From the NCBI GenBank assembly GCA_035496135.1, contig DATJEX010000040.1, positions 1 to 48,080 on the forward strand: a DNA stretch of 48,080 nucleotides, in the 5' to 3' direction. This DNA comes from Bacteroidia bacterium. Its GTDB lineage: Bacteria > Bacteroidota > Bacteroidia > Palsa-965. Below are positions 11,087 through 48,009 of this stretch, in pieces. The position numbers and the translations under genes were made by a program. The notes beneath the pieces were generated by a model. The model made no database searches. It saw only the letters and a list, made by a program, of their open reading frames with translations, and had not been told where the DNA came from. The stretch's first letter is position 1. Each line of letters begins with the position of its first letter.

Positions 11087-13252
11087 ATGAACAGCTTCAG
11101 AACAGAATTGGAAAATACATCAACAGCAACTACGCTCGTTGAAAAAGATATCATCGACCTGGCTCAGAAGATCGAGCGCTATAAAAACGGAACCATCGAT
11201 CCGGAAAAATTCCGGAGCCTTCGATTGGCGCGCGGCGTTTACGGACAACGTCAGCAGGGTGTACAGATGGTGCGCATCAAAGTTCCGTATGGAAAGATCT
11301 CTGCCGATCAATTGCGCCGCATCGCGGATATCTCCGATGAATATTCGAACGGCAATCTTCATCTCACCACGCGGCAGGATATTCAGCTGCATCACATTCC
11401 GCTCGATGATACTCCCGCGTTGTGGGAAAAACTCGAAGCAGGATATGAGAACGACGGAATTACTTTGCGCGAAGCCTGCGGAAATACCGTGAGAAATGTC
11501 ACCGCATCTCCGCAAGCCGGGATCGATCCGGAAGAACCGTTCGATGTTACTCCGTATGCCGATGCGCTCTTCCGTTATTTTCTCCGTCACCCTGTAGGAC
11601 AGGACATGGGCCGCAAGATCAAGATCGCATTCTCTTCTTCGGAAAGTGATACGGCGTTTGTCTTCATTCACGACCTCGGATTTATTCCCCGTGTTGAGAT
11701 TGTGAATGGTAAAATTGTCCGCGGATTCAAAGTCGTTATCGGTGGTGGGCTCGGCGCGCAGCCCTTTCTTGCGCAAACCGCTTTTGAATTCCTGGGTGTG
11801 GATGAATTCATTCCGTTCACCGAATCCATCCTGCGAGTCTTCGATCGTCATGGAGAACGGAACAACCGTAACAAAGCGCGGCTGAAATATTTGCTGAATA
11901 AGATCGGGCTGGAAGAATTGTTGAAACTCGTCTCAGAAGAGCGTAAAGCCATTTCATACAAACCGGAATTTCCCGAACAGCCGTCAGCTTCACTCGAAAA
12001 ACAGGAGAATGTCTTCACCACTTTCCGCGTCACCGGAAGTGAAACGTATGATGCGTGGCTGAAAGCAAATGTGTACGAGCAGAAACAGAAAAACTGGTTT
12101 GCAGTAAATGTGAAGATCGCGCAGGGAAATATTTCTTCTGTCGACGCCCGCAAATTCGCGACTGTCGTTGAACGTTATTCCAAAGACGAATTGCGCATCA
12201 CCGCCGGTCAAAGTTTTTTCATCCGCTTCGTTCCGAGAAATGCTTTGCCTGCGCTCTTTCATGAATTGAAGAATATCGGCCTGGCGGAAACCGGCGCGAA
12301 TGCATTCGCAGATATTACGTCATGCCCGGGCACAGATACGTGCAATCTCGGGATCTCCAACAGCACCGGCGTTTCAGCCGAACTGGAAAAAGTGATCCGT
12401 AACGAATTTCCGGAATTGATCGCAGAGAAAAATATCGCTGTCAAAATTTCCGGCTGCATGAATTCCTGCGGACAACACGGACTCGCGCAGATCGGTTTTC
12501 ACGGTAGTTCGGTGAAGGCGGGAAACAATGTCGTTCCAGCGCTGCAACTTGTTCTTGGCGGCGGAGCAACAGGAAGTGGAAGTGGGCGGGTCGCCGAAAA
12601 AGTGATCAAGTTCCCGAGCAAACGTGCCCCGGCTATTCTTCGGTTCATTCTACTGGATTACAAAAATGCAGCGAATGAAAATGAATCGTTCAATGCTTAC
12701 TACGACCGCAAAGGGAAAAATCATTTTTATCAATTGCTCAAACCATTGGCCGACACGAACACGATCGAAGATCACGAGCTCATCGACTGGAACCAGGAAA
12801 CAAAATTCGAGACGGCGATCGGTGTGGGCGAATGCGCGGGCGTGAAAGTGGACCTGGTGTCCACCTTGCTCCTTGATGCGGAAGAAGCGTTGTCATTCGC
12901 GAAACAGAATTTCTCAGAAAAGAAATTCGGAGATGCCGCTTATAAAGCATACAACACGTTCATTCAGTCGGCGAAAGCATTGCTGTTGCTGAAAGAATTA
13001 CCCGTGAACACACAGCACACGCTCATCAGCGATTTTGATACGCATTTCGTTCAGACAGGATCATTCTATTTGCCGAACAGTTTCCGTGAACATGTTTTGC
13101 GCATCAATAAACAGGAAGCAGATGAATTATTCACGCTGAATTATCTCGCCGATGCAGAATCATTTTTCAGTCAATCCAAACATTATCATCAGCAACATCA
13201 TGAAAAACAAGAAGAAACTCCTGAGCTTGTCGAAGGGCTCATCCTCAACTAA
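11087..13252 (+). CDS. Assimilatory sulfite reductase, ferredoxin-type (NirA/Sir family) siroheme-[4Fe-4S] hemoprotein with a C-terminal extension
   Basis: Nitrite/sulfite reductase pattern with the cluster/siroheme cysteines CPGTDTC and CMNSC. It sits in an operon with cobA, siroheme synthase and cysH. Confidence 0.85.
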   Translation: MNSFRTELENTSTATTLVEKDIIDLAQKIERYKNGTIDPEKFRSLRLARGVYGQRQQGVQMVRIKVPYGKISADQLRRIADISDEYSNGNLHLTTRQDIQLHHIPLDDTPALWEKLEAGYENDGITLREACGNTVRNVTASPQAGIDPEEPFDVTPYADALFRYFLRHPVGQDMGRKIKIAFSSSESDTAFVFIHDLGFIPRVEIVNGKIVRGFKVVIGGGLGAQPFLAQTAFEFLGVDEFIPFTESILRVFDRHGERNNRNKARLKYLLNKIGLEELLKLVSEERKAISYKPEFPEQPSASLEKQENVFTTFRVTGSETYDAWLKANVYEQKQKNWFAVNVKIAQGNISSVDARKFATVVERYSKDELRITAGQSFFIRFVPRNALPALFHELKNIGLAETGANAFADITSCPGTDTCNLGISNSTGVSAELEKVIRNEFPELIAEKNIAVKISGCMNSCGQHGLAQIGFHGSSVKAGNNVVPALQLVLGGGATGSGSGRVAEKVIKFPSKRAPAILRFILLDYKNAANENESFNAYYDRKGKNHFYQLLKPLADTNTIEDHELIDWNQETKFETAIGVGECAGVKVDLVSTLLLDAEEALSFAKQNFSEKKFGDAAYKAYNTFIQSAKALLLLKELPVNTQHTLISDFDTHFVQTGSFYLPNSFREHVLRINKQEADELFTLNYLADAESFFSQSKHYHQQHHEKQEETPELVEGLILN

Positions 13253-13334
13253 CATCCCGACTCCCCTCGATGCGGCAAAGAGAGAAACCATCCAGGCCTT
13301 GTTCCGTCGATGTTGGTTACGACTGCGGGCGCGT

Positions 13335-13364
13335 GGTAGGGACACGAAGCTTCGTGTCCCTACC
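13335..13364. repeat. Perfect 30-nt palindrome GGTAGGGACACGAAGCTTCGTGTCCCTACC
   Basis: 13-bp stem with a 4-nt AGCT centre and no following T-tract. It lies between the sulfite reductase gene and cobA. Confidence 0.85.
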
Positions 13365-13431
13365 AATGCCTGGGACCGTTTCTGATCAACATTACCTATT
13401 TCTCACTACTCAATACTAACTACTCATTACC

Positions 13432-15827: not shown

Positions 15828-16471
15828 ACATAGAAGAGCTGAACATAAAATATACTGCGTTGCGTCCGGAAGAACGGGTTAAGGAATTGTACAAAGATTT
15901 CAGCAAGATCCTTTTCACTTCTTCGTTCGGAACTACGTCTGCTATTCTCATTCATCTCTTCAGCAAAATAAATCCTGCGCAGAAAATATTCTTCCTCGAT
16001 ACCACTTATCATTTCGCCGAAACGATTCAATACAAGGATCAACTAACGGAATTATTTCACCTGAATGTGGAAACTGTTCTGCCGGAAGACTGGAAGAACA
16101 GTTTCACGCGCGAAGATCAAACCTGGTCGAAAGATCCTGATCTCTGCTGTTCCATCAATAAAGTGGAGCCGCTCGACAAAATAAAACCCGGTTACGGGAT
16201 CTGGGTTTCGGGCCTGATGCAATCGCAGAATTCGTACCGGAAGAAAATGAACATCTTCGAGGAAAAGGAAGGCATCATCAAATTCTACCCGATCATCGAC
16301 ATGACGTCCGAACAGGCGAGTGATTACATCAAGCAGAATAGTTTGCCCGCGCATCCGCTTCTCGCGCACGGATTCGCTTCGGTCGGTTGCATTCATTGCA
16401 CCGTGAAAGGAAGAGGCCGTGAAGGAAGATGGGTGAACAGGAATAAAACGGAGTGTGGATTACATCTTTAG
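15824..16471 (+). CDS. cysH: Adenylyl-sulfate / phosphoadenylyl-sulfate reductase (thioredoxin-dependent), Fe-S cluster type
   Basis: C-terminal catalytic ECGLH motif. The CC (DLCCSINK) and CxxC (GCIHC) pairs are characteristic of APS-type reductases. The start overlaps the upstream stop as ATGA. Confidence 0.88.
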   Translation: MNIEELNIKYTALRPEERVKELYKDFSKILFTSSFGTTSAILIHLFSKINPAQKIFFLDTTYHFAETIQYKDQLTELFHLNVETVLPEDWKNSFTREDQTWSKDPDLCCSINKVEPLDKIKPGYGIWVSGLMQSQNSYRKKMNIFEEKEGIIKFYPIIDMTSEQASDYIKQNSLPAHPLLAHGFASVGCIHCTVKGRGREGRWVNRNKTECGLHL

Positions 16472-16603
16472 TACGAACTACGAAATGGGCGAATATGCGA
16501 AATACAGATATACAAATGATGCGAAATGCGGAAGATCGACCAGTATCTTTGCGTCTCTTCGCGATTTCGTATTTAGCGTATTCGCCCATTTCGTAGTTCG
16601 TAC
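16471..16603. repeat. Long intergenic hairpin element, GTACGAACTACGAAAT-terminus family
   Basis: 35-nt arms at 16471-16505 and 16569-16603 are reverse-complementary: about 25 perfect bp plus imperfect pairs. Inner segments pair further. Confidence 0.8.
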
Positions 16604-16626
16604 AACAGCATTTACAAATATCAATT

Positions 16627-18338: not shown

Positions 18339-18469
18339 CTACTGTACGAACTACGAAATTGACGAAGTACCTAATACGAATTCGCTAAAAATACGAAGTA
18401 CGAAAGGTATACCCGGATCCGTATTCTTTCGTACTTCGTATTTCGTGCATTTCGTAATTCGTACAGTAG
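18339..18469. repeat. Long intergenic hairpin element, GTACGAACTACGAAAT-terminus family
   Basis: Outer arms ctactgtacgaactacgaaatt... and ...atttcgtaattcgtacagtag. There is an inner perfect 18-bp inverted repeat (18389-18406 with 18426-18443). It shares the 16-mer gtacgaactacgaaat with 16471-16486. Confidence 0.8.
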
Positions 18470-25685: not shown

Positions 25686-28193
25686 ATGGATTGCGCTTCT
25701 GATCAGCTGGAACAACTGTATCGTGAACTCCGGAGTTCCCCTTCGGGACTGACGACTTCGGAAGCGAATGAACGATTGCGGGAACTCAGCGGAAAAAAAC
25801 ACACACGGGGAAGACGGACACGGGAATTTCATCTGCTCATCCGCCAGTTCAGGAGTCCGCTCGTTCTGCTTTTACTGGTCGCGGTACTGCTCTCCGGCAT
25901 CATGGGCGAAACGACCGACATGTTCATCATTCTCGGAATTCTCATCACGACGGGCTTATTGAGTTTCATCCAGGAATTGAATGCGGGACGATCGGTGGAG
26001 AAACTGCAGCAGATGCTTGCCGTTACGGTTGATGTAATGCGTGATGGAAGGATCAAAAAACTGAAGAGCGACGATGTCGTTCCGGGAGACATTCTCGAGT
26101 TGAATGCAGGTGATCTCATTCCCGCCGATTGCAGGATCATCAGCAGTAAAGAACTGCACGTGAATGAAAGTTCGCTCACCGGTGAATCATTTGCCGTGGA
26201 AAAAAGTGAAGGTGAAGTGAAACACAGTGCTTCCATCGCTGAAAAAACGAACAGCCTCTGGAAAGGAACGCACGTCATCAGCGGGACAGCTAACGCGATC
26301 TGTGTTTTTACCGGCGACAAAACCATTTTCGGGCAAATGAAAAGTTCGCTCGAAACCGAAGAGGAAACTGTTTTTGAAAAAGGCATCCGGCATTTCGGAA
26401 TGTTCCTGCTCAAGATCACACTCGTGCTCTCCGTTTGTATTCTCATCATCAATATTATTTTTCATAAACCGATCGCGGATTCCATTCTCTTTTCACTCGC
26501 GGTAGCCGTAGGAATGGCCCCGGAATTATTGCCCGCGATCATGACACTCTCCATGACCGCCGGGGCAAAACGGATGCTGCGGAAGAAAGTGATCGTCAAA
26601 AAACTCACATCCATCATCAACTTCGGTGAAGTAACCGTGTTGTGCACCGATAAAACCGGAACGCTCACAGAAGGAATTTCACACGTGAGTAAGATCGTGG
26701 ATGCCGATGGAAAAGAAGATCCCGAAATGTACCGGATGGCGAAACTGAATGCGACGCTTCAGAATGGTTTCAACAACCCGATCGACGATGCATTGCAGAA
26801 ACTCGGTGAAGATATTTCCGGCTACACTAAATGCGGAGAGATCCCTTATGATTTCAAGCGAAAACGGTTAAGTATCCTGGCGGAGAAAGGTTCCTCCTAC
26901 ACGATGATCACCAAGGGAGCGGTCATCAATGTGCTGGAGGTCTGCACGAGTTATTTTTCGGCGAAAGAGATCCGCACACTGGGAAAAGATGATGTGGAAC
27001 GCATCAACAACCGTTTCCGCGAATACAGTGAGAAAGGTTTTCGGGTGCTCGGGCTCGCGTACAGGAATTTCCCGGCCGGGAAAATGACAAAGGCGGATGA
27101 AAAAGAAATGATCTTCCTCGGTTTCATTCTCCTCGAGGATCCGCTGAAGGAAGGAGTACTTCATTCGCTCGAGCGTTTGAATAAACTGAATACTTCGCTC
27201 AAGATCATCACCGGCGACAACCGCCATGTGGCCGCTTACACTGCAGCTGAACTCGGATTCCATACCGGGGAGATCCTGCTCGGAAGTGAGATCGCCGCGC
27301 TGTCACCCGAAGCGCTGAAGGTGAAAGTAAAACAGATCCAGGTTTTCGCCGAAGTGGAACCGCAGCAGAAAGAACATATCATACGCGCGTTGCAGCAATC
27401 GGGCGAAGCGGTCGCGTACATGGGCGATGGCATCAATGATGTCGCCGCGATTCATGCTGCGGACACCGGCATTTCGGTGAATGACGCGGTGGATGTGGCG
27501 AAAGAAGCCGCCGATTTTGTGCTGCTCGAAAAAGATCTTTCCGTTCTGGCCGATTGAATCACAGAATGAAGAAAAACTTTTGCGAATTCACTCAAGTACA
27601 TTTTCATCAGTACCGGCGCGACATTCGGTAATATGTTCAGCGTGGCAGGTGCTTCACTGCTCATTCCGTTTCTGCCCATGCTGCCGAAACAGATCCTGCT
27701 CACGAATTTCATCACCGATTTTCCATACCTCGCAGTATCGGACGACAACGTGGATGAAGCTCAACTGCGAAGGCCGAGTCGATGGGATCTGAAAATGGTC
27801 CGTCGCTTCATGCTTGTTTTTGGTCTGCACAGCTCCATTTTCGATCTGCTCACTTTCTTCTATCTTTTTTTCGTACTTCATCTGAAAGAAGCAGCTTTCC
27901 AGACCGGCTGGTTCCTCGAATCGGTGATCACCGAACTCATCATTTTATTCGTGATCCGTTCGGCACGCACATTCCTGAAAAGCAAACCTTCTCTTTTCCT
28001 TGTGCTCTCCGCGACATTAATGACCGCGTTCACACTCCTGCTCATCTATTCCCCGCTTGCCGGAATGTTCGGTCTGCAGCAATTGCCTTTGATGCAATTC
28101 CTGGTCATTACCGGAATACTTGTGTTGTATCTGATCACCGCAGATATACTGAAAATATTTTTCTTCCGTTACATGGCCAAACAGACTACCTGA
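25686..28193 (+). pseudogene. mgtA: MgtA-type Mg2+-transporting P-type ATPase interrupted by two in-frame TGA codons (27555-27557 and 27567-27569)
   Basis: P-type motifs TGES, DKTGTLT and GDGINDVAA are present. ORFs 25686-27557 and 27633-28193 are in the same frame. The bridging sequence reads D*ITE*RKTFANSLKYI, which is colinear with MgtA EEGVIEGRRTFANMLKYI (recalled from memory). Confidence 0.8.
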
Positions 28194-28197
28194 AAGG

Positions 28198-28324
28198 GGG
28201 AACGAACTGCTAATCCGTCAGCATAGCTGCCGTACGAATATGCGTAGTGCGTACGGCGAACATGCTGAATCAAATAATCCGAAATCCGTACTTCGCATAT
28301 TCGATCGATTCGTAATTCGTTCCC
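28198..28324. repeat. Long intergenic hairpin element, GGGAACGAA...TTCGTTCCC-terminus family
   Basis: Termini gggaacgaactgctaatccg (28198-28217) and cgattcgtaattcgttccc (28306-28324). Inner inverted repeats are cagcat/atgctg, gccgtacg/cgtacggc and cgaatatgcg/cgcatattcg. Confidence 0.75.
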
Positions 28325-37824: not shown

Positions 37825-39180
37825 ATGGAACACAAAAAAAGAATTCTGATCGTCGGTGGTGGATTATCGGGCACACTCGTGTCGCTCGCACTCGCACGCC
37901 TGAACAAAACGACTGAATTCCTCCTCGTGGAAAAGAACCCGGGCATGATCGGAAGAGGGATCGCCTACAATCACGATTTCACACATCAGCCCCTCAACGT
38001 CATGGCAACGGGAATGAGTTTATTCTCCGATGAACCGAATCATTTTCTCGATTGGCTGACCGAAAATAAATTCCGCTATCGTCATCTTCTACCCGATGTG
38101 AATCCGAAAGTATTCGCGCCAAGAAAAGTTTTCGGCGATTATATTGTTGAACATCTCGACCGCATTCATCATATCGCGCCGGGCAGATTCCAGATCCGGA
38201 TTGATGAAGTGGTTTCACTCCGCAGAAAAGAAAATAAATTCCGCGCGAAAATGGAATCCGGAACGGAGATCGAAGCGGATCATGTGGTGCTCGCACTCGG
38301 GAATTTTCCGCCCGGCGATCTTTTCCCGGAGAATGATCCTGTGAATTCCGATCCGAGATATTTTTCCAATCCGTGGACCGATCGTATTTACAGTAATCTT
38401 GGTGGAGAAGAACATATTCTGCTCGTTGGAACCGGTTTGACTGCTGTTGATGTGGTACTCGGATTGAAGACCCGCGGATTCAAAGGGAAAGTTTCCATGA
38501 TATCGCGGCGCGGAAGATTACCATTGCCGCATGATGTGAATACGATTCCGGTGAAACTCGAATATCCGGGCCATCTTCATCCGCGTGAAGCATGGCAATG
38601 GCTGAAGAATAAAATTGAAAGTGATAAGAATAATTCCTGGGTCGCTTATCTCGACGGATTGCGGCCGCTCACACAGGAATTCTGGAAATCGTGGAGCATA
38701 GAAGAGCGGAAATATTTCATGAAGCGCCTTCGCCCGTTCTGGGAAGTGTTCCGTCACCGTATTCCGCTTGCATCACATACGTTGTTAAGCGAAATGGAAA
38801 AATCGGGACAACTGCTCATTGCCAAAGCAAATATTTCCGAAGCGAAATTATCTGCGGCAGGAATTGAAGTGGTGTTCGATAAGAAAAGCGGATTGAAGAA
38901 TGATGTCTTCAGCAAAATCATCAATTGCACAGGCCCTGAATCCAATTACCGCAAAGTGAAATTTCCGATCATCGTCAATCTCATGAACCAGGGACTGGTG
39001 ACAGCGGATGAACTCGGTTTGGGAATAAAATGTACGGCCGACGGAAAGATCATTGACAAAAACAATTCTACTGTAGAAGGATTGTGGTGCATCGGACCAA
39101 TGCGGAAATCTGCATTGTGGGAAACGACAGCGATCCGTGAGTTGAGAGAACAGGCGGAGGAATTTGCGAAACGGTTCTGA
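37825..39180 (+). CDS. FAD/NAD(P)-binding oxidoreductase of unknown specificity
   Basis: Rossmann motifs ILIVGGGLSGT and ILLVGTGLTAVD. Length is 451 aa. Confidence 0.65.
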   Translation: MEHKKRILIVGGGLSGTLVSLALARLNKTTEFLLVEKNPGMIGRGIAYNHDFTHQPLNVMATGMSLFSDEPNHFLDWLTENKFRYRHLLPDVNPKVFAPRKVFGDYIVEHLDRIHHIAPGRFQIRIDEVVSLRRKENKFRAKMESGTEIEADHVVLALGNFPPGDLFPENDPVNSDPRYFSNPWTDRIYSNLGGEEHILLVGTGLTAVDVVLGLKTRGFKGKVSMISRRGRLPLPHDVNTIPVKLEYPGHLHPREAWQWLKNKIESDKNNSWVAYLDGLRPLTQEFWKSWSIEERKYFMKRLRPFWEVFRHRIPLASHTLLSEMEKSGQLLIAKANISEAKLSAAGIEVVFDKKSGLKNDVFSKIINCTGPESNYRKVKFPIIVNLMNQGLVTADELGLGIKCTADGKIIDKNNSTVEGLWCIGPMRKSALWETTAIRELREQAEEFAKRF

Positions 39181-39195
39181 GAACCCGATGTTTTA

Positions 39196-39456
39196 TTATT
39201 CTGAATCCGGATTTATTCCTTCTTCTTTCAGGACAGATTCCCTTCCGGTCGTATTTCTTTTTCCATCGCCCGGCAATGCACAACCATTCACTCCACAACA
39301 ACCGGTATTGGTAAGCGCCTGCAGCAAAAAGAAAGCCGCCACAAATCCCGACAGCATATCATGCGTCTGAATGGTTTGGATCGTGAGCAGAAGCCCGAAA
39401 CCCAAACGGATCCAGCGCATGAAATGCCAACCGGTAAAAAGCCGCTGCCTGATCAT
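39196..39456 (-). CDS. YgaP-like / DUF2892 small membrane protein
   Basis: 86 aa with two hydrophobic helices followed by a Cys-rich tail (GCCGVNGC). It is co-oriented with the rhodanese genes and overlaps one of them. The family call is from memory. Confidence 0.5.
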   Translation of the reverse strand: MIRQRLFTGWHFMRWIRLGFGLLLTIQTIQTHDMLSGFVAAFFLLQALTNTGCCGVNGCALPGDGKRNTTGRESVLKEEGINPDSE

Positions 39457-39770
39457 CGTATCTTATTCTGTAAACTCATCCAGCCGCCACCGTTGTGAAC
39501 CTGCGTGTAGCCGCTCGACTTCAGGATACTTTTTGCCGAAGCACTCCGCATTCCCGATGCACAACACGTAATGATCGGTTTGTTCTTGTCCTTCAATTTA
39601 CCGAGATTTTCACCCAGCGCATTGACGGGAATATTGATGGAGCCTTTAATGTGTCCGCTGGCAAATTCTCCTTTGCTGCGTACATCCAGGATGATCGCTC
39701 CCTGTTTTACAAGTTCAGCGTAATTTACTTTCGGGCCTAATCCGAATAATTCTTTTAGTGCATTTATCAT
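39453..39770 (-). CDS. Single-domain rhodanese (sulfurtransferase)
   Basis: Active-site loop CCASGMRS and DVRSKGEFASGHI. Confidence 0.85.
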   Translation of the reverse strand: MINALKELFGLGPKVNYAELVKQGAIILDVRSKGEFASGHIKGSINIPVNALGENLGKLKDKNKPIITCCASGMRSASAKSILKSSGYTQVHNGGGWMSLQNKIR

Positions 39771-39780
39771 TTTTCTGTTT

Positions 39781-40056
39781 TTAAGATTGATAATTATTAA
39801 CGTCGAGCCAGGATCCGCCGTTGTAGCATTCCACTCCGTGCTGGCTAAGATAACGATGTGCCTGTCCGCTTCGGTTTCCCGATGCGCAACACAGCACGAG
39901 CGGTGATCCCAGGTTCTTCAGTTCTTCCATCCGCTGCGGAATTTCATTGAGCGGAATATTCACAGATCCTGCGACATTTCCCCCGCTGAATTCTTCGCGT
40001 GTACGCACATCCACGATGGTGGCGTTCTTTTCTTTGATTATTTTTTCGATGTTCAT
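39781..40056 (-). CDS. Single-domain rhodanese (sulfurtransferase)
   Basis: ATG at 40056 (MNIEKIIKEKNATIVDVRTREEF). Active-site loop CCASGNRS. Confidence 0.8.
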   Translation of the reverse strand: MNIEKIIKEKNATIVDVRTREEFSGGNVAGSVNIPLNEIPQRMEELKNLGSPLVLCCASGNRSGQAHRYLSQHGVECYNGGSWLDVNNYQS

Positions 40057-40058
40057 GA

Positions 40059-40262
40059 CTATTCTGTTTTTGTTTTTTCTTTTCTGAATAAATTGAATAT
40101 TAACCCGCCCATCACCATTCCATACAACGTGCTGTTCAGCGGTTTTGATGTGATCGGGCAGGTACCGCTCGCACAACCCACAAAATGATAGTAGAAATAT
40201 CCGCCGATCGCGCCCAGGATCATTCCTGCCAGTATTAATTTATGACGTATGATAAAATTCAT
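40059..40262 (-). CDS. Small membrane protein with a CxxGxC motif
   Basis: 67 aa with two hydrophobic helices flanking GCASGTC. It overlaps the upstream stop by 4 nt. Confidence 0.5.
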   Translation of the reverse strand: MNFIIRHKLILAGMILGAIGGYFYYHFVGCASGTCPITSKPLNSTLYGMVMGGLIFNLFRKEKTKTE

Positions 40263-41614
40263 TGCTGGAATTTTTTTATTTCCGTGCTCAAGTCATACAC
40301 CACTGAATTCCCATTCAGTTTCGATTTGATGATGCTGCTTCCTGCTGCGCTGCGGTAACCGCCTGCACAATGCACCACGATCGGTTTGTGAACCGGTATC
40401 TCGCCGGTACGTTCCCTTAGTTCATGCAGGGGAATATGAATTGCATTCCTGAATATTTTCTTTGTTTTCACTTCGGAATGATTCCGGATGTCGAGAATGG
40501 TAAAAGCTTCTTCATTTTCCGACAACTGTGCGCTGTCAAATAATTTCGTTTCCGAATTTCCGTAGTCAGAGCTGAAAGCAGATACGATCTGTTCCTCGTA
40601 ACCGATCTTCGCTATCCGCCTGATCAGTTGCTGCAATTCCTCTTCCTGCGCTGCAACGAGGTAAAATTTTTCACCCGGGTCGACAATGCTGCCCATCCAT
40701 GTTTCAAATTTCACATCATTCATCAGGTTGATGGCATTTTTCAAATGCGCTTTTTTGAATTGTTCCTGCGGACGTGTATCGATCACTGTGATGCCGGGAT
40801 CAAGTGAATTGGCGCAACCCTGGCAGGAGATCGGTTCTCTCCTGTTCACTTGTTCAATGCTCATCGCAAATCCTGCGGCACCTTTTTTATTGATCGCCAC
40901 ATCGAACGGAAAATATTTCGGAATGAAGGGCTGATCGGCGAGTAATTCTTTTACGAAATCTGTTTCGCTCATGCGCTGCAAACTCCAGTTACTGACTTTT
41001 TCCGCGCCGATCGTGCTGCTGTTCTGTTCACTCATTCCTTTTCCGCACAAACTGCCTGCACCGTGCGCCGGAAATACGGCTACATCATCCGGCAGAACCA
41101 TCAGTTTTTCCCGAAGGGAATGATACATCTGTTTCGCCAGTTCTGTTCTTGTTGCCATGATCGCTCCTGCTGCTTCTCTCAGGTCAGGCCTTCCGCAATC
41201 GCCGATGAATAACGTATCACCGGTGAAAACAGCTTTGGATTTACCGTTCTCATCAATGGCGACAATACTGATACTGTCGGGAGAATGTCCCGGCGTATTC
41301 AGTGATTTCAATGTGATTCCACCAAGTACGATCGCGTCGCCGTCATCAAATGACTCGTGCGGATATTCTGCACCCAGTAATCTGCTCACGTAAATGGTCG
41401 CTCCGGTGGTTTGATATATTTCAAGATGGCTGCTTACAAAATCGGCATGCGGATGCGTTTCGATCACCGCTGTGATCTTTGCGTTATGTTCCTTTGCATA
41501 CTTGTAATAAGGTTCCGGATCTCTTGCCGGATCTATCAGCGCAATTTCTCCTTTGCTCATGATCGCGTAGGAATAGTGCGCAAGGTTTTTATCTTCGAAT
41601 TGCTGGATCTTCAT
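40259..41614 (-). CDS. MBL-fold persulfide-dioxygenase-like hydrolase fused to rhodanese domains
   Basis: Metal motif THPHADF, downstream TPGHSP and FPAHGAGS, and a C-terminal rhodanese with active-site loop HCAGGYRS. Start chosen at MKIQQF (41614); ATG 41635 or 41713 are alternatives. Confidence 0.8.
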   Translation of the reverse strand: MKIQQFEDKNLAHYSYAIMSKGEIALIDPARDPEPYYKYAKEHNAKITAVIETHPHADFVSSHLEIYQTTGATIYVSRLLGAEYPHESFDDGDAIVLGGITLKSLNTPGHSPDSISIVAIDENGKSKAVFTGDTLFIGDCGRPDLREAAGAIMATRTELAKQMYHSLREKLMVLPDDVAVFPAHGAGSLCGKGMSEQNSSTIGAEKVSNWSLQRMSETDFVKELLADQPFIPKYFPFDVAINKKGAAGFAMSIEQVNRREPISCQGCANSLDPGITVIDTRPQEQFKKAHLKNAINLMNDVKFETWMGSIVDPGEKFYLVAAQEEELQQLIRRIAKIGYEEQIVSAFSSDYGNSETKLFDSAQLSENEEAFTILDIRNHSEVKTKKIFRNAIHIPLHELRERTGEIPVHKPIVVHCAGGYRSAAGSSIIKSKLNGNSVVYDLSTEIKKFQQ

Positions 41615-41699
41615 TTTTCCGGGTTTTAAATTCATAGTATAAAGGTCGGCGTTGATCATTCCGTGCACAGCTACTTTTGTTACACAGCAGCTTTTATTC

Positions 41700-42074
41700 T
41701 CAGTGTTTATCAACGAAGAGCATTTTCACCGCGATCAACATCAACATGATGGCGAAAGTGTTTTTCAATACCTGGCGTGGGATCTGCGTGGCGAACTTTG
41801 CGCCGAAATATCCGCCGACAAAAAAGAAAACAGCCATGAGGAGTGCGGCCTTCATGTCCACGAATCCTTTCTGGTAATAATGGAAAGCGGCCATTGCTCC
41901 AACCGGTAGTACCATCATCATCAATGCGGTTCCCTGTGCCATTTGCTGCGAATATCCCAGCAACATCACCAGCGCAGGAATGATGACGATCGCGCCGCCC
42001 AGGCCCAGCATTCCGCTGAGGATTCCGGCAATTGTTCCGATAAGTGCAACTATGATTGAGCTGTTCATGTCCAT
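41700..42074 (-). CDS. TauE/SafE (TSUP) family half-size membrane protein
   Basis: 124 aa with four hydrophobic helices. The Gly-rich motif GMLGLGGAIVIIPAL is typical of DUF81. Confidence 0.7.
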   Translation of the reverse strand: MDMNSSIIVALIGTIAGILSGMLGLGGAIVIIPALVMLLGYSQQMAQGTALMMMVLPVGAMAAFHYYQKGFVDMKAALLMAVFFFVGGYFGAKFATQIPRQVLKNTFAIMLMLIAVKMLFVDKH

Positions 42075-42135
42075 TTTGCTTCAGGTTTACTTCTGCAAAG
42101 GTTGGACAATAAAAAGTGCTGGTCAGTTACTTTTG

Positions 42136-42756
42136 TTACAGAAGCCTGATCTTGTTGCGGCCCAGCTCCACGAGTTTTTCCTCCTCCATCTGTTTGAGCA
42201 GCCTTGAAATGACCACGCGAGCGGTTCCCAGTTCATTGGCCAGTTGCTCGTGTGTGACATAAAGCGTATGGCTGCCGGTGAGCTCACATTTTTTCCGGAT
42301 ATAATTCAACAGCCGCTCGTCCATTTTCTTGAACGCAACCGCATTCACCACTTCCAGCAGTTCCTCGAAACGTTTGTGATAAAGCCGGAAAATATAATCG
42401 AGCCATTCGGGATATTCCTTTATGAGCAGGCTCACTTTGTCAATGGGAATAAAAAGAATTTCTGTTTCTTCTTCTGCGATCGCTTTTACTTTGCTGGTGT
42501 CGTGATGCATTCCGCCGAGAAAAGACATGATACAGCTTTCACCTGCTTTGATGTAATAAAGCAGAATTTCCCGCCCGTCTTCGTCCGTGCGCATCACGCG
42601 GATACTTCCTTTCGTCACAATGGGAATATCGCGGATGTAAGCATTCTCATTCAGAATTACATCTCCTTCTTTGAACGTACGCGCGACGCCATAAGCAGAA
42701 AGTTTTTGCCTGATCTCCGGTGATGATTTGAATTCGGCGAGATTATCCAGTTCCAT
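42136..42756 (-). CDS. Crp/Fnr family transcriptional regulator
   Basis: cNMP-binding-like N-domain and a C-terminal HTH (THEQLANELGTARVVISRLL). The ATG at 42756 is preferred over the TTG at 42762. Confidence 0.85.
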   Translation of the reverse strand: MELDNLAEFKSSPEIRQKLSAYGVARTFKEGDVILNENAYIRDIPIVTKGSIRVMRTDEDGREILLYYIKAGESCIMSFLGGMHHDTSKVKAIAEEETEILFIPIDKVSLLIKEYPEWLDYIFRLYHKRFEELLEVVNAVAFKKMDERLLNYIRKKCELTGSHTLYVTHEQLANELGTARVVISRLLKQMEEEKLVELGRNKIRLL

Positions 42757-42759
42757 ATA

Positions 42760-42767
42760 CAAAGCTA
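42760..42767 (-). promoter_or_regulatory. Bacteroidota -7 promoter box TAGCTTTG (minus strand)
   Basis: The reverse complement of caaagcta matches TAnnTTTG, 3 nt upstream of the crp-like ATG. Confidence 0.4.
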
Positions 42768-42818
42768 CGATTCGACCACTGCTAAAATCCGTTCATTGAC
42801 GAAAATCAGAAAATATGA

Positions 42819-42918
42819 ATTGTGGCGTGCCGGACCAATACGGAAATCGGCATTGTGGGAAACAGCGGCGGTACGCGAACTGAGAGAGCAGGCGGAGGTA
42901 TTTGCCAGGCGGTTCGGA
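42819..42918 (+). pseudogene. Relic copy of the last 33 codons of the FAD oxidoreductase gene (homologous to 39081-39180)
   Basis: Gap-free 100-nt alignment at about 80 percent identity. Translation WRAGPIRKSALWETAAVRELREQAEVFARRFG versus WCIGPMRKSALWETTAIRELREQAEEFAKRF*. Many differences are synonymous. Confidence 0.8.
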
Positions 42919-42948
42919 GTGTTTGGTACAAATATGGCATATATATGC

Positions 42949-42956
42949 TATTTTTG
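42949..42956 (+). promoter_or_regulatory. Bacteroidota -7 promoter box TATTTTTG, with a possible -33 TTTG at 42922-42925
   Basis: Exact TAnnTTTG match, 15 nt upstream of the ATG at 42972. Confidence 0.45.
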
Positions 42957-42971
42957 TACTACCTTTATGCC

Positions 42972-44135
42972 ATGATCCAGAGGGAAGCCGCCGGTTTGAT
43001 CCGCAGATATGCACGCTCGTTCCGTGCCGTAGCGGTTGTCGGGCCCCGCCAAAGCGGGAAAAGCACACTCGTAAAAACACTTTTTAAAGACAAGCCGTAC
43101 ATCTCACTGGAAAACCCGGATGAGCGGGAATTTGCAGAAACAGATGCGAGAGGGTTCCTGGCGCGTTTCCCGAAAGGTGCGATCATTGACGAAGCGCAAC
43201 GCGTTCCCCATCTTTTCAATTATCTGCAGCAGATCATTGACGATGCCGATAAACCGGGAATGTTCATTCTTACAGGTAGTAATAATTTTCTTCTTCAACA
43301 ATCCATCACGCAATCGCTCGCCGGAAGGATCGGTTATATTGATCTTCTCCCGCTGACGATCGGTGAGATCAAACTGTTTGGCAGGAAGAAGATCGGCTTG
43401 AACGATCGGCTTCTCAAAGGAGCATACCCGGAGATCTACCAGAAGAAGATCGATCCGGGAATATGGTTCCCATCTTACATCAGAACATATGTTGAAAGAG
43501 ACTTCAAACAGCTGAGGAATATCGAGAGCACAACTCAATTCACTCGATTTCTCCAGTTATGCGCAGGAAGGATAGGGCAACAACTATCCATGAATTCGCT
43601 TTGTAACGATTGTGGTATTGACGTGCGGACAGGAAATGCTTGGATGAGTATTTTGCAGAGCAGCTATATCATTCATCTGCTTCAGCCTCATCATAAGAAT
43701 TTCCGGAAACGGGTAGTAAAATCTCCGAAGCTGTACTTTATTGACACTGGCCTTGCTTGTAGTCTTCTTGGAATACATACCACCACTGAACTTGATACCA
43801 CTCATTTCCGTGGTGCGTTATTTGAAAATTTTGTTGTCTCGGAATTCCTGAAAAACAAATTCAACGCGGCACATTTCTCAAATTTTTATTACTGGCGCGA
43901 CAACAAGGGCGTGGAAGTGGATCTGCTCATTGACGATGGAAAAAAACTAACGCCGGTCGAAATAAAATCAGGCGCCACTTTCAGCGATGATCAACTACGT
44001 TCTCTCAGGCAATGGAACAGTTTCAGTGGAAATAAAGGAGGTTACCTGATCTACAACGGAAAACTGGAAATGAAAACCAAAGACGGTATTGAAGTGATGA
44101 ATTGGGAAAAGATCGGAGAGATGAAAATCAGGTAA
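42972..44135 (+). CDS. AAA+ ATPase with a DUF4143 C-terminal domain
   Basis: Walker A (VVGPRQSGKST) and Walker B-like (GAIIDEAQ). The ATG at 42972 is preferred because the upstream part of the ORF-track ORF is the relic region read in another frame. Confidence 0.75.
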   Translation: MIQREAAGLIRRYARSFRAVAVVGPRQSGKSTLVKTLFKDKPYISLENPDEREFAETDARGFLARFPKGAIIDEAQRVPHLFNYLQQIIDDADKPGMFILTGSNNFLLQQSITQSLAGRIGYIDLLPLTIGEIKLFGRKKIGLNDRLLKGAYPEIYQKKIDPGIWFPSYIRTYVERDFKQLRNIESTTQFTRFLQLCAGRIGQQLSMNSLCNDCGIDVRTGNAWMSILQSSYIIHLLQPHHKNFRKRVVKSPKLYFIDTGLACSLLGIHTTTELDTTHFRGALFENFVVSEFLKNKFNAAHFSNFYYWRDNKGVEVDLLIDDGKKLTPVEIKSGATFSDDQLRSLRQWNSFSGNKGGYLIYNGKLEMKTKDGIEVMNWEKIGEMKIR

Positions 44136-44209
44136 TCTCTGCGATGAGAATTCCTTCAGGTCATTCTTCCTCTCCGTGATTCGTACATCCTTAAAATCAG
44201 TAATCCTCC

Positions 44210-45952
44210 CTATTGAGCGTTCACCTTCTGCTTCGAGCTCACGATCTCCACCGCTTTCTGAATATGCGCCACGACTTCTTTTTTCAAATACGCAGGATCT
44301 GTATTCGTGTGCGCTCCCATTAAGTACGCCTTCAACGCGCAAACCGGTTTGCCGTATTCTGTCGTGCGGAATTTTGTGGTGATGCTCAGGGCCGGTGCGG
44401 GAATTCCATCCTGTTCATGCATTTCGCAAAGTGTGTTGTACACATCCTGCTGGAACTGGTTGAACTTCATCAGCTCGTCGTCGTATTTCTCCTTGAAGAA
44501 TTCATTCTGGTATTGCAATCCTCCGTCCATCCATTTCGGATAAACACGGAAGAGCGTCACTGCACCATAACTGTCTTTGTTCACGACCACAATGTTCTGG
44601 TGGAATTCCAGTTCATCGCGCAAAGCCTGCTGCATTTCGATCAAATGTCCGATCATTACCTGGTAACCTTCGTAACCGAAATATTTTAAGTGTGTCCACG
44701 CGATAAGCGCAGGTCCGCAGGCGCGTGAAACTTCGAGCGTGAATTTTCCGGGATAATAAATGTCTTTCACCGAATGGAAGAGATAGGAAACGCCACCGCC
44801 TGGATTTTTCAGCAGATCGAACATGCGTTCATCTTTCAGACAGAAAGCGGAAGATGCATAAGCAGCAAATCCTGTTTTGTGAAAGTCGACACCAACGGCA
44901 TCCACATCTTCCATTCCGCTTGCTTTGAGAATGGAATCGGAAATGAGCTTCATCGCGCGCGTAGAGAATTCCAGCGGATTATTCGTGAAATCATAATCGC
45001 GGAATGCCATCCACGCCCAGCCGATCACGGCATCGGCATAAACGAACGGACGCGTATCCGTGAAAAATTCTTTCGGGATCATTTTGCAGAGATGCGCGAT
45101 CTCGCGGATATTGTCAATGGCGAATGCATCTGTTGTTCCTGCAGTAGCAACGACCATTGCTACAGGAATTCCCTGTTTGTAGAGTGAACGCAGCACTTCT
45201 TCGAGATGATCGACGTTCATCGTTCCGTCAGGATTCACATCGATCTCCACCACATTCTTTCTTCCCAAACCTGTCCAGTCGGCTGTATTGTATTTCGCGT
45301 AATGCGATCCTTTCGACGCAAGCACTTTCACGTCCTGGCGGATTCCATTATGGCGCGAAGAATAACCAAGGCATTGTGTCAATGCAATTTTTGTAGCGTA
45401 GAGATAATTGTTCGTTCCGCCGGTGGTACAAATTCCTCCCGCTTTCACTTTATTCCAGCCGAACATTTCCGCCAGCATGGAAATTACTTCCACTTCAGCA
45501 GCCGCGATATCAGAAGAAAGTTCCGATTCCACGAGATTGGCATTCACCATTGCTCCAAGCATGGCAGCAGCAACAGAAAGTTCTGATGATTGCGGCACGA
45601 CGTTGATCAATGTCTTCGTATGTCCCCAATGCGGAACACCATTGAAACGTGTGAGCAATTCTTCCATCACATGATCACGATCGCCGATCTCCTGCGGCAT
45701 ATGAATATCATTCTTGATCCCGGTAAGGATTTCCTTCGCAGGAGCATTCGGTTTGGAGATCATTTTACGCTTGGAAATATCACCCCAGAACCATTTCTGT
45801 TCTTCCGGATCGTGCTTCATCGCATTCAAAGCAACGATCGTCTGCTTGAGGAATTCCTCCAGCTTCGAATCTTTTTCTTTATCGCGATCGGGTTGGGGAT
45901 AAACTGAACGGACTTTGTCATTCAGTAATGTTTTCCATTTTGGTGTAGGCAT
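44210..45952 (-). CDS. PLP-dependent decarboxylase-like enzyme (group II fold-type I)
   Basis: 580 aa. It has a PLP-lysine context VDFHKTG and a Gly-rich segment GGICTTGGTNNYLYA typical of group II decarboxylases. Confidence 0.6.
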   Translation of the reverse strand: MPTPKWKTLLNDKVRSVYPQPDRDKEKDSKLEEFLKQTIVALNAMKHDPEEQKWFWGDISKRKMISKPNAPAKEILTGIKNDIHMPQEIGDRDHVMEELLTRFNGVPHWGHTKTLINVVPQSSELSVAAAMLGAMVNANLVESELSSDIAAAEVEVISMLAEMFGWNKVKAGGICTTGGTNNYLYATKIALTQCLGYSSRHNGIRQDVKVLASKGSHYAKYNTADWTGLGRKNVVEIDVNPDGTMNVDHLEEVLRSLYKQGIPVAMVVATAGTTDAFAIDNIREIAHLCKMIPKEFFTDTRPFVYADAVIGWAWMAFRDYDFTNNPLEFSTRAMKLISDSILKASGMEDVDAVGVDFHKTGFAAYASSAFCLKDERMFDLLKNPGGGVSYLFHSVKDIYYPGKFTLEVSRACGPALIAWTHLKYFGYEGYQVMIGHLIEMQQALRDELEFHQNIVVVNKDSYGAVTLFRVYPKWMDGGLQYQNEFFKEKYDDELMKFNQFQQDVYNTLCEMHEQDGIPAPALSITTKFRTTEYGKPVCALKAYLMGAHTNTDPAYLKKEVVAHIQKAVEIVSSKQKVNAQ

Positions 45953-45971
45953 GGGTGCGATTTTAGGAGAC

Positions 45972-45979
45972 CAAAGTTA
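45972..45979 (-). promoter_or_regulatory. Bacteroidota -7 promoter box TAACTTTG (minus strand)
   Basis: The reverse complement of caaagtta matches TAnnTTTG, 19 nt upstream of the decarboxylase ATG. Confidence 0.45.
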
Positions 45980-46002
45980 GCCAAATTCACACAGGAGATT
46001 TC

Positions 46003-46153
46003 AGTCCCGTAGGGACGGCATTCCGGTAATAAAAGCAGCTCTTCCCTTCTCATCGGGCGGCGCGACCTTGATTCACTTTCGATCAAAGACGCGCCGCCCG
46101 CCGTAAATAGAGCTGGGTGATTTCTCTTACCGAAATGCCGTCCCTACGGGACT
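46003..46153. repeat. 151-nt nested palindromic (MITE-like) element with 27-bp terminal inverted repeats
   Basis: Termini agtcccgtagggacggcattccggtaa (46003-46029) and ttaccgaaatgccgtccctacgggact (46127-46153), with 1 mismatch. Inner stems are cagctct/agagctg, cgggcggcgcg/cgcgccgcccg (46054-46064 with 46090-46100) and ttgat/atcaa. Confidence 0.8.
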
Positions 46154-47919: not shown

Positions 47920-48009
47920 GGGAACAAATTCCGAATGGCTCGAATATCCGAATGGAGAATACGCAACGCGCACATATATGCATTTTCGCGCGATTGGTAA
48001 TTCGTTCCC
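47920..48009. repeat. Long intergenic hairpin element, GGGAAC...TTCGTTCCC-terminus family
   Basis: Termini gggaacaaattccgaatgg (47920-47938) and cgattggtaattcgttccc (47991-48009). The right terminus differs at 2 positions from 28306-28324. Confidence 0.7.

Follow-up and report, generated by a model that had tools for sequence, protein, structure and literature searches.

Gene content of the locus

Contig DATJEX010000040.1 of an uncultured Bacteroidia metagenome-assembled genome (MAG) contains, within the 48-kb stretch analyzed here (48,080 nucleotides, hereafter the window), a gene for a YdhS-like oxidoreductase that is followed by an opposite-strand operon of sulfur-handling genes (hereafter the module) and, beyond it, by a second, diverged copy of the last 100 nt of the oxidoreductase gene. 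We refer to the end of the intact gene as copy A and to the isolated one as copy B. The same arrangement was also seen on one JGI metagenome contig. The locus can be recognized as a recombination scar, fairly ordinary and of a kind that is already known. Its features are given below in their order along the window, in comparison with three other copies of the module (loci L016, L018, and L020) and with a syntenic relative that lacks it (L003).

37825-39180, plus strand: intact gene for a YdhS-like FAD/NAD(P)-binding oxidoreductase of 451 amino acids (aa) (Pfam PF13454 [NAD_binding_9]/PF07992)
39081-39181, plus strand: copy A, the oxidoreductase gene's working 3′ end (final 33 codons with the stop codon and one further base)
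39182-39195: left junction, a 14-nt spacer between copy A (A/B similarity ends at 39181) and the last module gene's stop codon (39196, in the 86-aa gene)
39196-39456, minus strand: small Cys-rich protein of 86 aa, last module gene; its 82-aa counterparts in L016 and L020 occupy the same position, are 59-60% identical to it, and align to its end
39453-39770, minus strand: single-domain rhodanese of 105 aa (Pfam PF00581; active-site loop CASGMR)
39781-40056, minus strand: single-domain rhodanese of 91 aa (Pfam PF00581; loop CASGNR)
40059-40262, minus strand: DUF6132 small membrane protein of 67 aa (Pfam PF19628, E = 1e-9)
40259-41614, minus strand: metallo-β-lactamase (MBL)-fold persulfide-dioxygenase-like enzyme fused to a rhodanese, 451 aa (Pfam Lactamase_B and Rhodanese)
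41664-41686, minus strand: conserved operator-like motif TGTGTAACAAAAGTAGCTGTGCA upstream of the MBL-rhodanese gene; identical or near-identical at the same place in L016, L018, and L020
41700-42074, minus strand: half-size TauE/SafE-family membrane protein of 124 aa (Pfam PF01925, profile positions 126-237)
42136-42756, minus strand: Crp/Fnr-family regulator of 206 aa, first module gene (Pfam cNMP_binding and HTH_Crp_2)
42773-42818: right junction, a 46-nt spacer from the end of module homology (module DNA homology ends at 42772) to copy B
42819-42919, plus strand: copy B, the displaced native 3′ end, a decaying relic (no 5′ gene body; stop codon TGA now GGA)
42926-42959: loop-less 34-nt hairpin palindrome (15/17 Watson-Crick pairs), a native element 3′ of the oxidoreductase gene and probable terminator
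42972-44135, plus strand: AAA_14/DUF4143 ATPase of 387 aa, accessory (Pfam PF13173 and PF13635; PADLOC PDC-S01 candidate defence family, E = 6.5e-103)
44210-45952, minus strand: pyridoxal phosphate (PLP)-dependent decarboxylase, the right-hand synteny anchor (94.6% aa identity to L003)

An identical protein in an NCBI Bacteroidia MAG bears the name FAD/NAD(P)-binding protein, and within the oxidoreductase copy A retains the LWCIGPMRK..WETTA residues that are common to the 60 homologues inspected. More distant YdhS homologues (63-66% identity) were found in O-antigen/polysaccharide, ABC-transporter, and sulfotransferase loci but never with rhodanese genes, and the oxidoreductase is therefore not considered part of the module.

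The interval between the two copies holds only minus-strand genes, and these form a single 3.6-kb operon (39196-42756). The enzyme encoded by the MBL-rhodanese gene is a predicted persulfide-dioxygenase-like protein with a rhodanese domain: its PDB matches are 3tp9 (E = 1e-69), 3r2u, ETHE1 (4chl), and BpPRF (5ve3), it carries a CAGGYR loop and an HPHAD motif, and hundreds of homologues are present in Bacteroidota at 75-80% identity. The 86-aa Cys-rich protein shows 30% identity to its L018 counterpart and gave no match in a Pfam search. The 124-aa TauE/SafE-family gene is present in L016 and L020 as well. We predict that TGTGTAACAAAAGTAGCTGTGCA is likely an operator for the Crp-family regulator. 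The same motif recurs after the Crp gene (window ~42120-42140, minus strand) in all module copies, and its sites elsewhere lie at 1967 in L016, at 6917 and 7922 in L018, and at 3200 in L020. A TAnnTTTG box is located by the Crp gene at 42767 on the minus strand. A first-pass annotation of the window, made from the letters alone, had described a minus-strand cluster of Crp, TauE, MBL-rhodanese, and rhodanese genes, and this part holds; its DUF2892 label was not confirmed, and it had listed neither the DUF6132 gene nor the second rhodanese gene.

Homology of the module DNA to the related copies extends over window positions 39278-42772, with its edge 17 nt upstream of the Crp start codons of L016 and L020. 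The operon is fuller in the related copies, which include YgaP-like, TPMT, HMA, and thioredoxin genes that the window copy does not have; the thioredoxin gene, which follows the small Cys-rich gene in related modules, is missing at the window's left junction. The genomic context of these copies is also different, since the module adjoins MacB/FtsX, aconitase, and DUF4421 genes in L016 and L020 and lies between a cation ATPase and a fatty-acid desaturase gene in L018; in none of the three was it seen beside YdhS. By sequence comparison, the window carries a trimmed copy of a widespread Bacteroidota operon in a non-canonical place.

A diverged direct repeat brackets the module

Copies A and B form an ungapped direct repeat in which 80 of 100 positions are identical (39081-39180 versus 42819-42918), or 81 of 101 when the alignment is extended by one base (39081-39181 versus 42819-42919). 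This agrees with the first-pass annotation, which had reported a gapless 100-nt repeat of about 80% identity starting at 39081 and 42819 and had stated that the reading frame is kept: copy B reads LWRAGPIRKSALWETAAVRELREQAEVFARRFG, with its stop codon changed from TGA to GGA. The pair is the strongest direct repeat of the window (BLASTN inside the window, E = 6.7e-22; binomial expectation across all position pairs, ~5e-20), and no third copy was found by BLASTN within the 48 kb. The similarity starts abruptly at 39081/42819 and ends one base beyond the stop codon, and the longest exact run between the copies, of 14 nt (39112-39125), falls within the most conserved codons. Eleven of the 20 differences are at third codon positions, 6 at first, and 3 at second; they affect 15 codons, with 7 synonymous changes, 7 amino-acid replacements, and the loss of the stop. 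When the origin of the junction sequence was sought, the 46-nt spacer had no significant match in the fetched loci or in the rest of the window, and a 74-nt stretch was likewise without matches.

A syntenic relative carries the empty site

The locus could be compared with one related species, represented by L003/L004 (SRR12113409/10) and L011 (GCA_016194975.1), which shares the gene order aldehyde dehydrogenase, BFN-domain protein, Fer4/Pyr_redox protein, POR, thiamine pyrophosphate (TPP) subunit, YdhS, PLP decarboxylase, adenine glycosylase, and HI0933-like protein. In this relative, a single YdhS copy is present at the locus and is followed, after 95 nt, by the PLP decarboxylase gene, without the module and without the DUF4143 ATPase. 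Nucleotide homology between the window and the relative stops at 39180 and resumes at 44217, such that 5.0 kb of DNA (module, copy B, hairpin, and ATPase) is found in the window only. These observations bear out the earlier proposal that the module was inserted at this locus, as does the presence of the other module copies in other contexts. The same proposal had predicted an empty site in which the oxidoreductase gene would be followed directly by the DUF4143 ATPase gene, whereas the relative has the PLP decarboxylase there and no ATPase.

The ATPase is a separate accessory gene that was either gained in the window lineage or lost in the sister lineage. Its JGI gene call starts at GTG 42822 (open reading frame [ORF] 42822-44135, 437 aa) and crosses copy B in a different frame. 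The alignment of the ATPase family begins at the Met encoded at ATG 42972, which is the probable true start and would give a protein of 387 aa. The possibility that copy B is in frame with the ATPase ORF was ruled out, as ORF 42822-44135 reads copy B in another frame.

Amino-acid identity between the window and the relative is 79% for POR, 85% for the TPP subunit, and 94.6% for the decarboxylase (L003). YdhS stands apart from its neighbors (79-95%), with only 59-60% aa identity to the L011 orthologue (11836-13185). In a neighbor-joining tree, however, L011 YdhS is sister to the window and P0002 sequences, with a long branch on the L011 side, and its divergence is therefore read as fast vertical evolution and not as gene replacement. 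Xenologous replacement of the whole YdhS gene was ruled out by this placement and long branch. P0002, the closest relative of the window's YdhS (83% identical), was compared at the protein level; its contig has the order TPP, YdhS, and an abutting minus-strand gene.

No other syntenic relative was found: a YdhS scan of genome contigs gave only relatives at 50% and 33%, in O-antigen loci, a metagenome scan with the decarboxylase gave only the same strain plus non-syntenic loci, and decarboxylase homologues at 81% and 72% identity were not syntenic.

A conserved hairpin marks the native gene end

To locate palindromes without bias, we scanned for loop-less 34-nt palindromes with at least 14/17 Watson-Crick pairs. 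Two were found in the 48-kb window, one of them 7 nt past the former stop codon of copy B, and exactly one was found in the 21.7-kb L011 locus (11780-11813), 22 nt after the YdhS stop codon; the relative's hairpin is at 4386-4419 in L003. By arithmetic from the scan counts, the chance that both palindromes fall where they do is of the order of 1e-5. The window hairpin and that of the relative are of equal length, have the outer arms GTACAA/TTGTAC in common, and differ by five compensatory pair changes, and the RNA fold of the window hairpin is well separated from shuffled sequences (z = −3.85). This homology was detected only by the structure-aware search: local alignments of the relative's 95-nt intergenic region scored no better than shuffles, whether the target was the stretch behind copy A, behind copy B, or behind the ATPase gene or the one upstream of Crp. 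No comparable hairpin was found after copy A.

Because a homologous hairpin follows the YdhS stop codon of the relative, copy B and the hairpin together are read as the ancestral gene end, moved 3.7 kb downstream, and the junction between copy A and the module is thus the new one. Copy B is the native, displaced gene end, and the hairpin is probably its terminator. The first-pass annotation had placed the junction inside the oxidoreductase 3′ end and taken one of the copies for a displaced end, which is borne out; it had left undecided which end is native, and the hairpin now points to B.

The position of the hairpin also bears on the idea that two oxidoreductase paralogues once stood at the locus and that a deletion left only the last 100 nt of the downstream one, its end point giving the sharp 5′ edge of copy B. 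The depth of the A/B split would suit such a history, because A and B differ at 20 positions per 100 nt, close to the 23 that separate A from the sister species (L003; 27 separate B from the relative). The sister genome, however, has one copy at the locus, the native hairpin follows B and not A, so that B sits where the single ancestral copy ended, and the position of the module exactly between the two copies would be left unexplained. We regard this history as very improbable.

Some further observations concern these palindromes. In the relative, where the hairpin separates the convergent YdhS and decarboxylase genes, it may terminate transcription in both directions. In the window, a TAnnTTTG box is found in its right arm, 15 nt upstream from the start codon of the ATPase gene. 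The second 34-nt palindrome of the window (13333-13366) is GC-rich, has 16/17 pairs, and is located just after a sulfite reductase gene; the surrounding region, at 11-16.5 kb, is a sulfate-assimilation cluster (NIR_SIR, siroheme synthase-TauE fusion, and PAPS reductase).

Copy B decays while copy A remains under selection

To follow each copy separately, differences were polarized with the syntenic relative as the outgroup. The B branch accounts for nine of the 20 differences (4:2:3 across the codon positions), among them the loss of the stop as well as C→R, I→A, M→I, and T→A changes at residues that are constant in the 60 homologues inspected. The A branch has five changes, of which one is in the variable tail and the other four are at third positions, and six differences are ambiguous. 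From this spread over codon positions and from the sites changed on each branch, copy B appears to have evolved without constraint and copy A under purifying selection.

The overall excess of third-position differences (11/20; p = 0.04 against a uniform spread) arises from the A branch (4/5) and from the ambiguous sites. The first-pass annotation had taken this pattern as a sign of two copies that each evolved as functional orthologues, and not of a decaying duplicate. The branch-specific changes speak otherwise, as those of copy B look neutral and strike conserved residues and the stop codon. In addition, the 11/20 count speaks marginally against function retained in both copies (p = 0.04), fits duplication in situ followed by decay (p = 0.21), and does not reject a mixed history either.

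The affinities of copy B were further examined among the 60 homologues compared. Its peptide is closest to A, P0002, and P0048 (the POR-linked clade), and only A and B have the complete tail AE[EV]FA[KR]RF, of which P0002 and P0048 alone carry near variants. At codon 27, B and the outgroup have Val, while A and P0002 share Glu, which places the split of A and B at or before that of A and P0002. The two informative amino-acid sites conflict on the finer placement of copy B.

These data are directly relevant to a rather unlikely but simpler alternative, in which an illegitimate insertion or repair event duplicated a target of ~101 bp (a long target-site duplication or a template switch), such that both copies are native and B then decayed. 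A single event would suffice, with no need for a donor in which an oxidoreductase-module junction stood ready, and the alternative also predicts copy B in its native context, neutral-looking changes on the B branch next to selected ones on the A branch, the 11/20 third-position count, and a composition without foreign signal. On the other hand, as far as is generally known, no bacterial insertion route makes 100-bp target duplications routinely. The repeated block ends one base past the stop codon, as is expected of a surrogate gene end, whereas a random staggered break would fall there only by chance. The A branch has at least as much third-position change as the B branch, opposite to the expected direction, a difference that is not significant, and the Val of B and the outgroup at codon 27, against the Glu of A and P0002, speaks in the same sense.

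No mobile-element machinery accompanies the module

Pfam scans of all ORFs in 39181-42818 revealed no integrase, excisionase, or transposase, nor did the 30 large ORFs that cover most of the window, and no tRNA gene was found in the window. That no integrase remains in the interval had already been noted in the first-pass annotation, with which these scans agree. The module copies in L016, L018, and L020 have no recombinase, flanking direct repeats, or oxidoreductase fragment. No YdhS, ATPase, or oxidoreductase 3′-end motif was found in viral contigs.

Insertion of a transposon or an insertion sequence is not indicated: there is no transposase, no inverted repeat pairs the ends of the insert, and the duplication is 101 nt long and 20% diverged. 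An integrase-borne island is a different matter, as its expected topology is the one observed here: the e14 prophage inserted in icd has a 163-bp pseudo-icd′ at its far end (PMC6379469), and the window likewise has an intact gene at one end and an orphan fragment at the other. An element bearing a surrogate 3′ end could have entered at the site that is unoccupied (also by the ATPase) in L003/L004/L011, A and B would be its attL and attR, and its mobility genes would later have been deleted. The first-pass annotation had pointed to this resemblance to an attL/attR pair, which gains little from the present data, with neither an integrase nor a tRNA gene in the window and no such fragment beside the other module copies. 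Apart from the missing integrase, excisionase, and transposase, the operon takes up the whole interval except for 14 and 46 nt at its ends, it occurs in three other contexts without flanking repeats or a recombinase, and viral contigs yielded no oxidoreductase fragment. There is also no long identical core (longest exact run, 14 nt), although an original att core would be unrecognizable given the 20% divergence of the copies. We consider such an island quite unlikely.

3′-end displacement as the favored mechanism

On balance, and with moderate confidence, we favor displacement of the gene's 3′ end without a resident recombinase, either homology-facilitated or by a single crossover. Judging from the sister genome, the ancestral layout would have been POR, TPP subunit, YdhS-like gene, 34-nt hairpin, and convergent PLP decarboxylase. 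In the window lineage, a 3.74-kb stretch (39081-42818), made up of a replacement for the last 100 nt (copy A), the 14-nt spacer, the trimmed opposite-strand operon, and the 46-nt spacer, would have entered at a point exactly 100 nt short of the native stop codon. As a result, copy B, which is the gene's own last 100 nt, now lies 3.7 kb further downstream together with the hairpin and has decayed there, while the oxidoreductase gene has stayed intact because copy A supplies its end.

The incoming DNA would already have carried an oxidoreductase 3′ end beside the module, and ordinary recombination would be its most likely route. Two forms may be envisaged. In homology-facilitated illegitimate recombination, the incoming DNA would have been anchored by homology within the gene or upstream of it and joined illegitimately at 42818/42819; alternatively, a circular intermediate would have entered by a single crossover. 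A recombinase-free route is favored because no recombinase was found, because the interval has almost no spare sequence, and because other copies of the module are without such ends.

Several points weigh against this displacement. Nothing shows directly that copy A is foreign: the signals from the three-way distances and from the two informative residues are in conflict, and copy A is slightly nearer to the relative's 3′ end (77/100) than copy B is (73/100). The substitution counts fit duplication in situ equally well, and the identity of the window's YdhS to P0002 shows no mosaic step along the protein. A donor with an oxidoreductase end 14 nt from the module is required, and none was seen. 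The comparison of GC content and codon usage between 39181-42818 and its flanks, which the first-pass annotation had proposed, revealed no difference: neither the module nor the ATPase nor YdhS could be told from the flanks by GC content, GC content at third codon positions, or relative codon usage, which suggests either that the insertion is old or that the donor was similar. With a single empty-site species and no syntenic outgroup found, gain of the module is not strictly polarized against its loss in the sister lineage, and the module and ATPase events are not ordered relative to each other; the ATPase needs an event of its own.

Other features of the window

The reading frame of a P-type cation ATPase gene (25686-28193) is interrupted by two TGA codons at positions 624 and 628, four codons apart (near 27555-27570; ..LAD*ITE*RKTF..), the second of which aligns with a Gly in the distant paralogue of L018. 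Both are presumably Gly positions in MgtA-type ATPases. As TGA is an ordinary stop codon in 9 of 33 window genes, the split gene looks like a pseudogene or a sequence error rather than a case of recoding, although a double G-to-T change at Gly codons is odd.

A family of intergenic repetitive extragenic palindrome (REP)-like palindromes with a TTCGTAGTTCGTAC-type core was found at 16466-16608, 18339-18469, 28284-28324, and 47980-48009, and consists of two 40-nt inverted-repeat pairs and of single arms elsewhere. The intergenic region that separates the decarboxylase gene from the adenine glycosylase gene holds a 32-nt inverted repeat (46003-46034/46122-46153; 91% complementary, arms 87 nt apart). 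Finally, L005 (Ga0310810_10243119), from another metagenome, is 100% identical to window positions 44020-46070 except that 60 nt (45153-45212) are missing in frame, which looks like a 20-codon indel polymorphism in the PLP decarboxylase gene.

Discussion

The locus offers a natural example of a chromosome that gained a whole operon inside a gene without breaking the gene and without mobile-element machinery, and the displaced gene end and its hairpin record the state of the site before the insertion. Insertion footprints of this kind are well documented for toxin loci and prophages, and we know of no documented case with metabolic cargo in Bacteroidota. Such footprints could serve as searchable markers of recombination-driven gene gain, and they matter for annotation, as relic B leads pipelines to over-extend the ATPase (437 aa in JGI against a probable 387 aa). 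As one case in one uncultured lineage, the locus is of modest interest.

A bolder reading, which we find distinctly unlikely, is that the operon spreads in Bacteroidota as a recombinase-free cassette that enters via surrogate ends of host genes. If true, tip displacement would be a general route for metabolic operons into housekeeping loci, beyond the polymorphic toxin loci from which it is known so far, and the present locus would be a natural and datable footprint of homology-facilitated illegitimate recombination.

In its cargo, the locus resembles sulfide-detoxification operons of the CstB/PRF type (3r2u, 5ve3; ETHE1, 4chl), with which it shares the combination of MBL-fold dioxygenase-like and rhodanese domains and the CxxGxR loop. 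As in those operons, the central enzyme sits with a TauE-family protein, additional rhodaneses, and a regulator. The regulator of the window is of the Crp/Fnr family, and the YgaP-like, TPMT, HMA, and thioredoxin genes of the related Bacteroidota copies are missing.

Homology-facilitated illegitimate recombination is on record for naturally transformable bacteria (de Vries and Wackernagel 2002, Prudhomme et al. 2002, and Meier and Wackernagel 2003, as cited in PMC5361080; see also PMC3240628). It is known mainly from laboratory selections. A homologous anchor combined with an illegitimate join would yield a gene, foreign cargo, and a partly duplicated recipient segment, as observed here. At this locus, the donor, the anchor, and any microhomology at the join are not identifiable.

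Prophage e14 inserts by integrase into E. coli icd, for which it brings a surrogate 3′ end and leaves the 163-bp pseudo-icd′ (PMC6379469). As with e14, the insert has a copy of the gene's 3′ end on either side, the copy on the insert side keeps the gene intact, and the copies are similar but not identical. Unlike e14, which has an integrase and excises, the window has no recombinase, its insert amounts to one operon, and the other copies of that operon are without such ends.

The remaining comparison is with toxin loci. C-terminal displacement with retention of old 3′ ends is known from Rhs genes (Jackson et al. 2009, PMC2935791), and displaced ends in type VI secretion system (T6SS) effector-immunity arrays have been attributed to homology-facilitated illegitimate recombination (Kirchberger et al. 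2017, PMC5361080); for the Rhs and T6SS cases, circular-intermediate recombination or homology-facilitated illegitimate recombination was proposed (PMC2935791, PMC5361080). The present locus differs from these systems in that the replacement end encodes essentially the same C-terminus instead of a new toxin tip, in that the cargo is an opposite-strand metabolic operon instead of an immunity gene, and in having a single displaced end, with only two copies in the window, instead of an array. Like them, it would have received a new 3′ end together with downstream cargo and kept the old end downstream as an orphan, without a dedicated recombinase, and that old end, copy B, keeps its native downstream sequence, the hairpin, as it decays.

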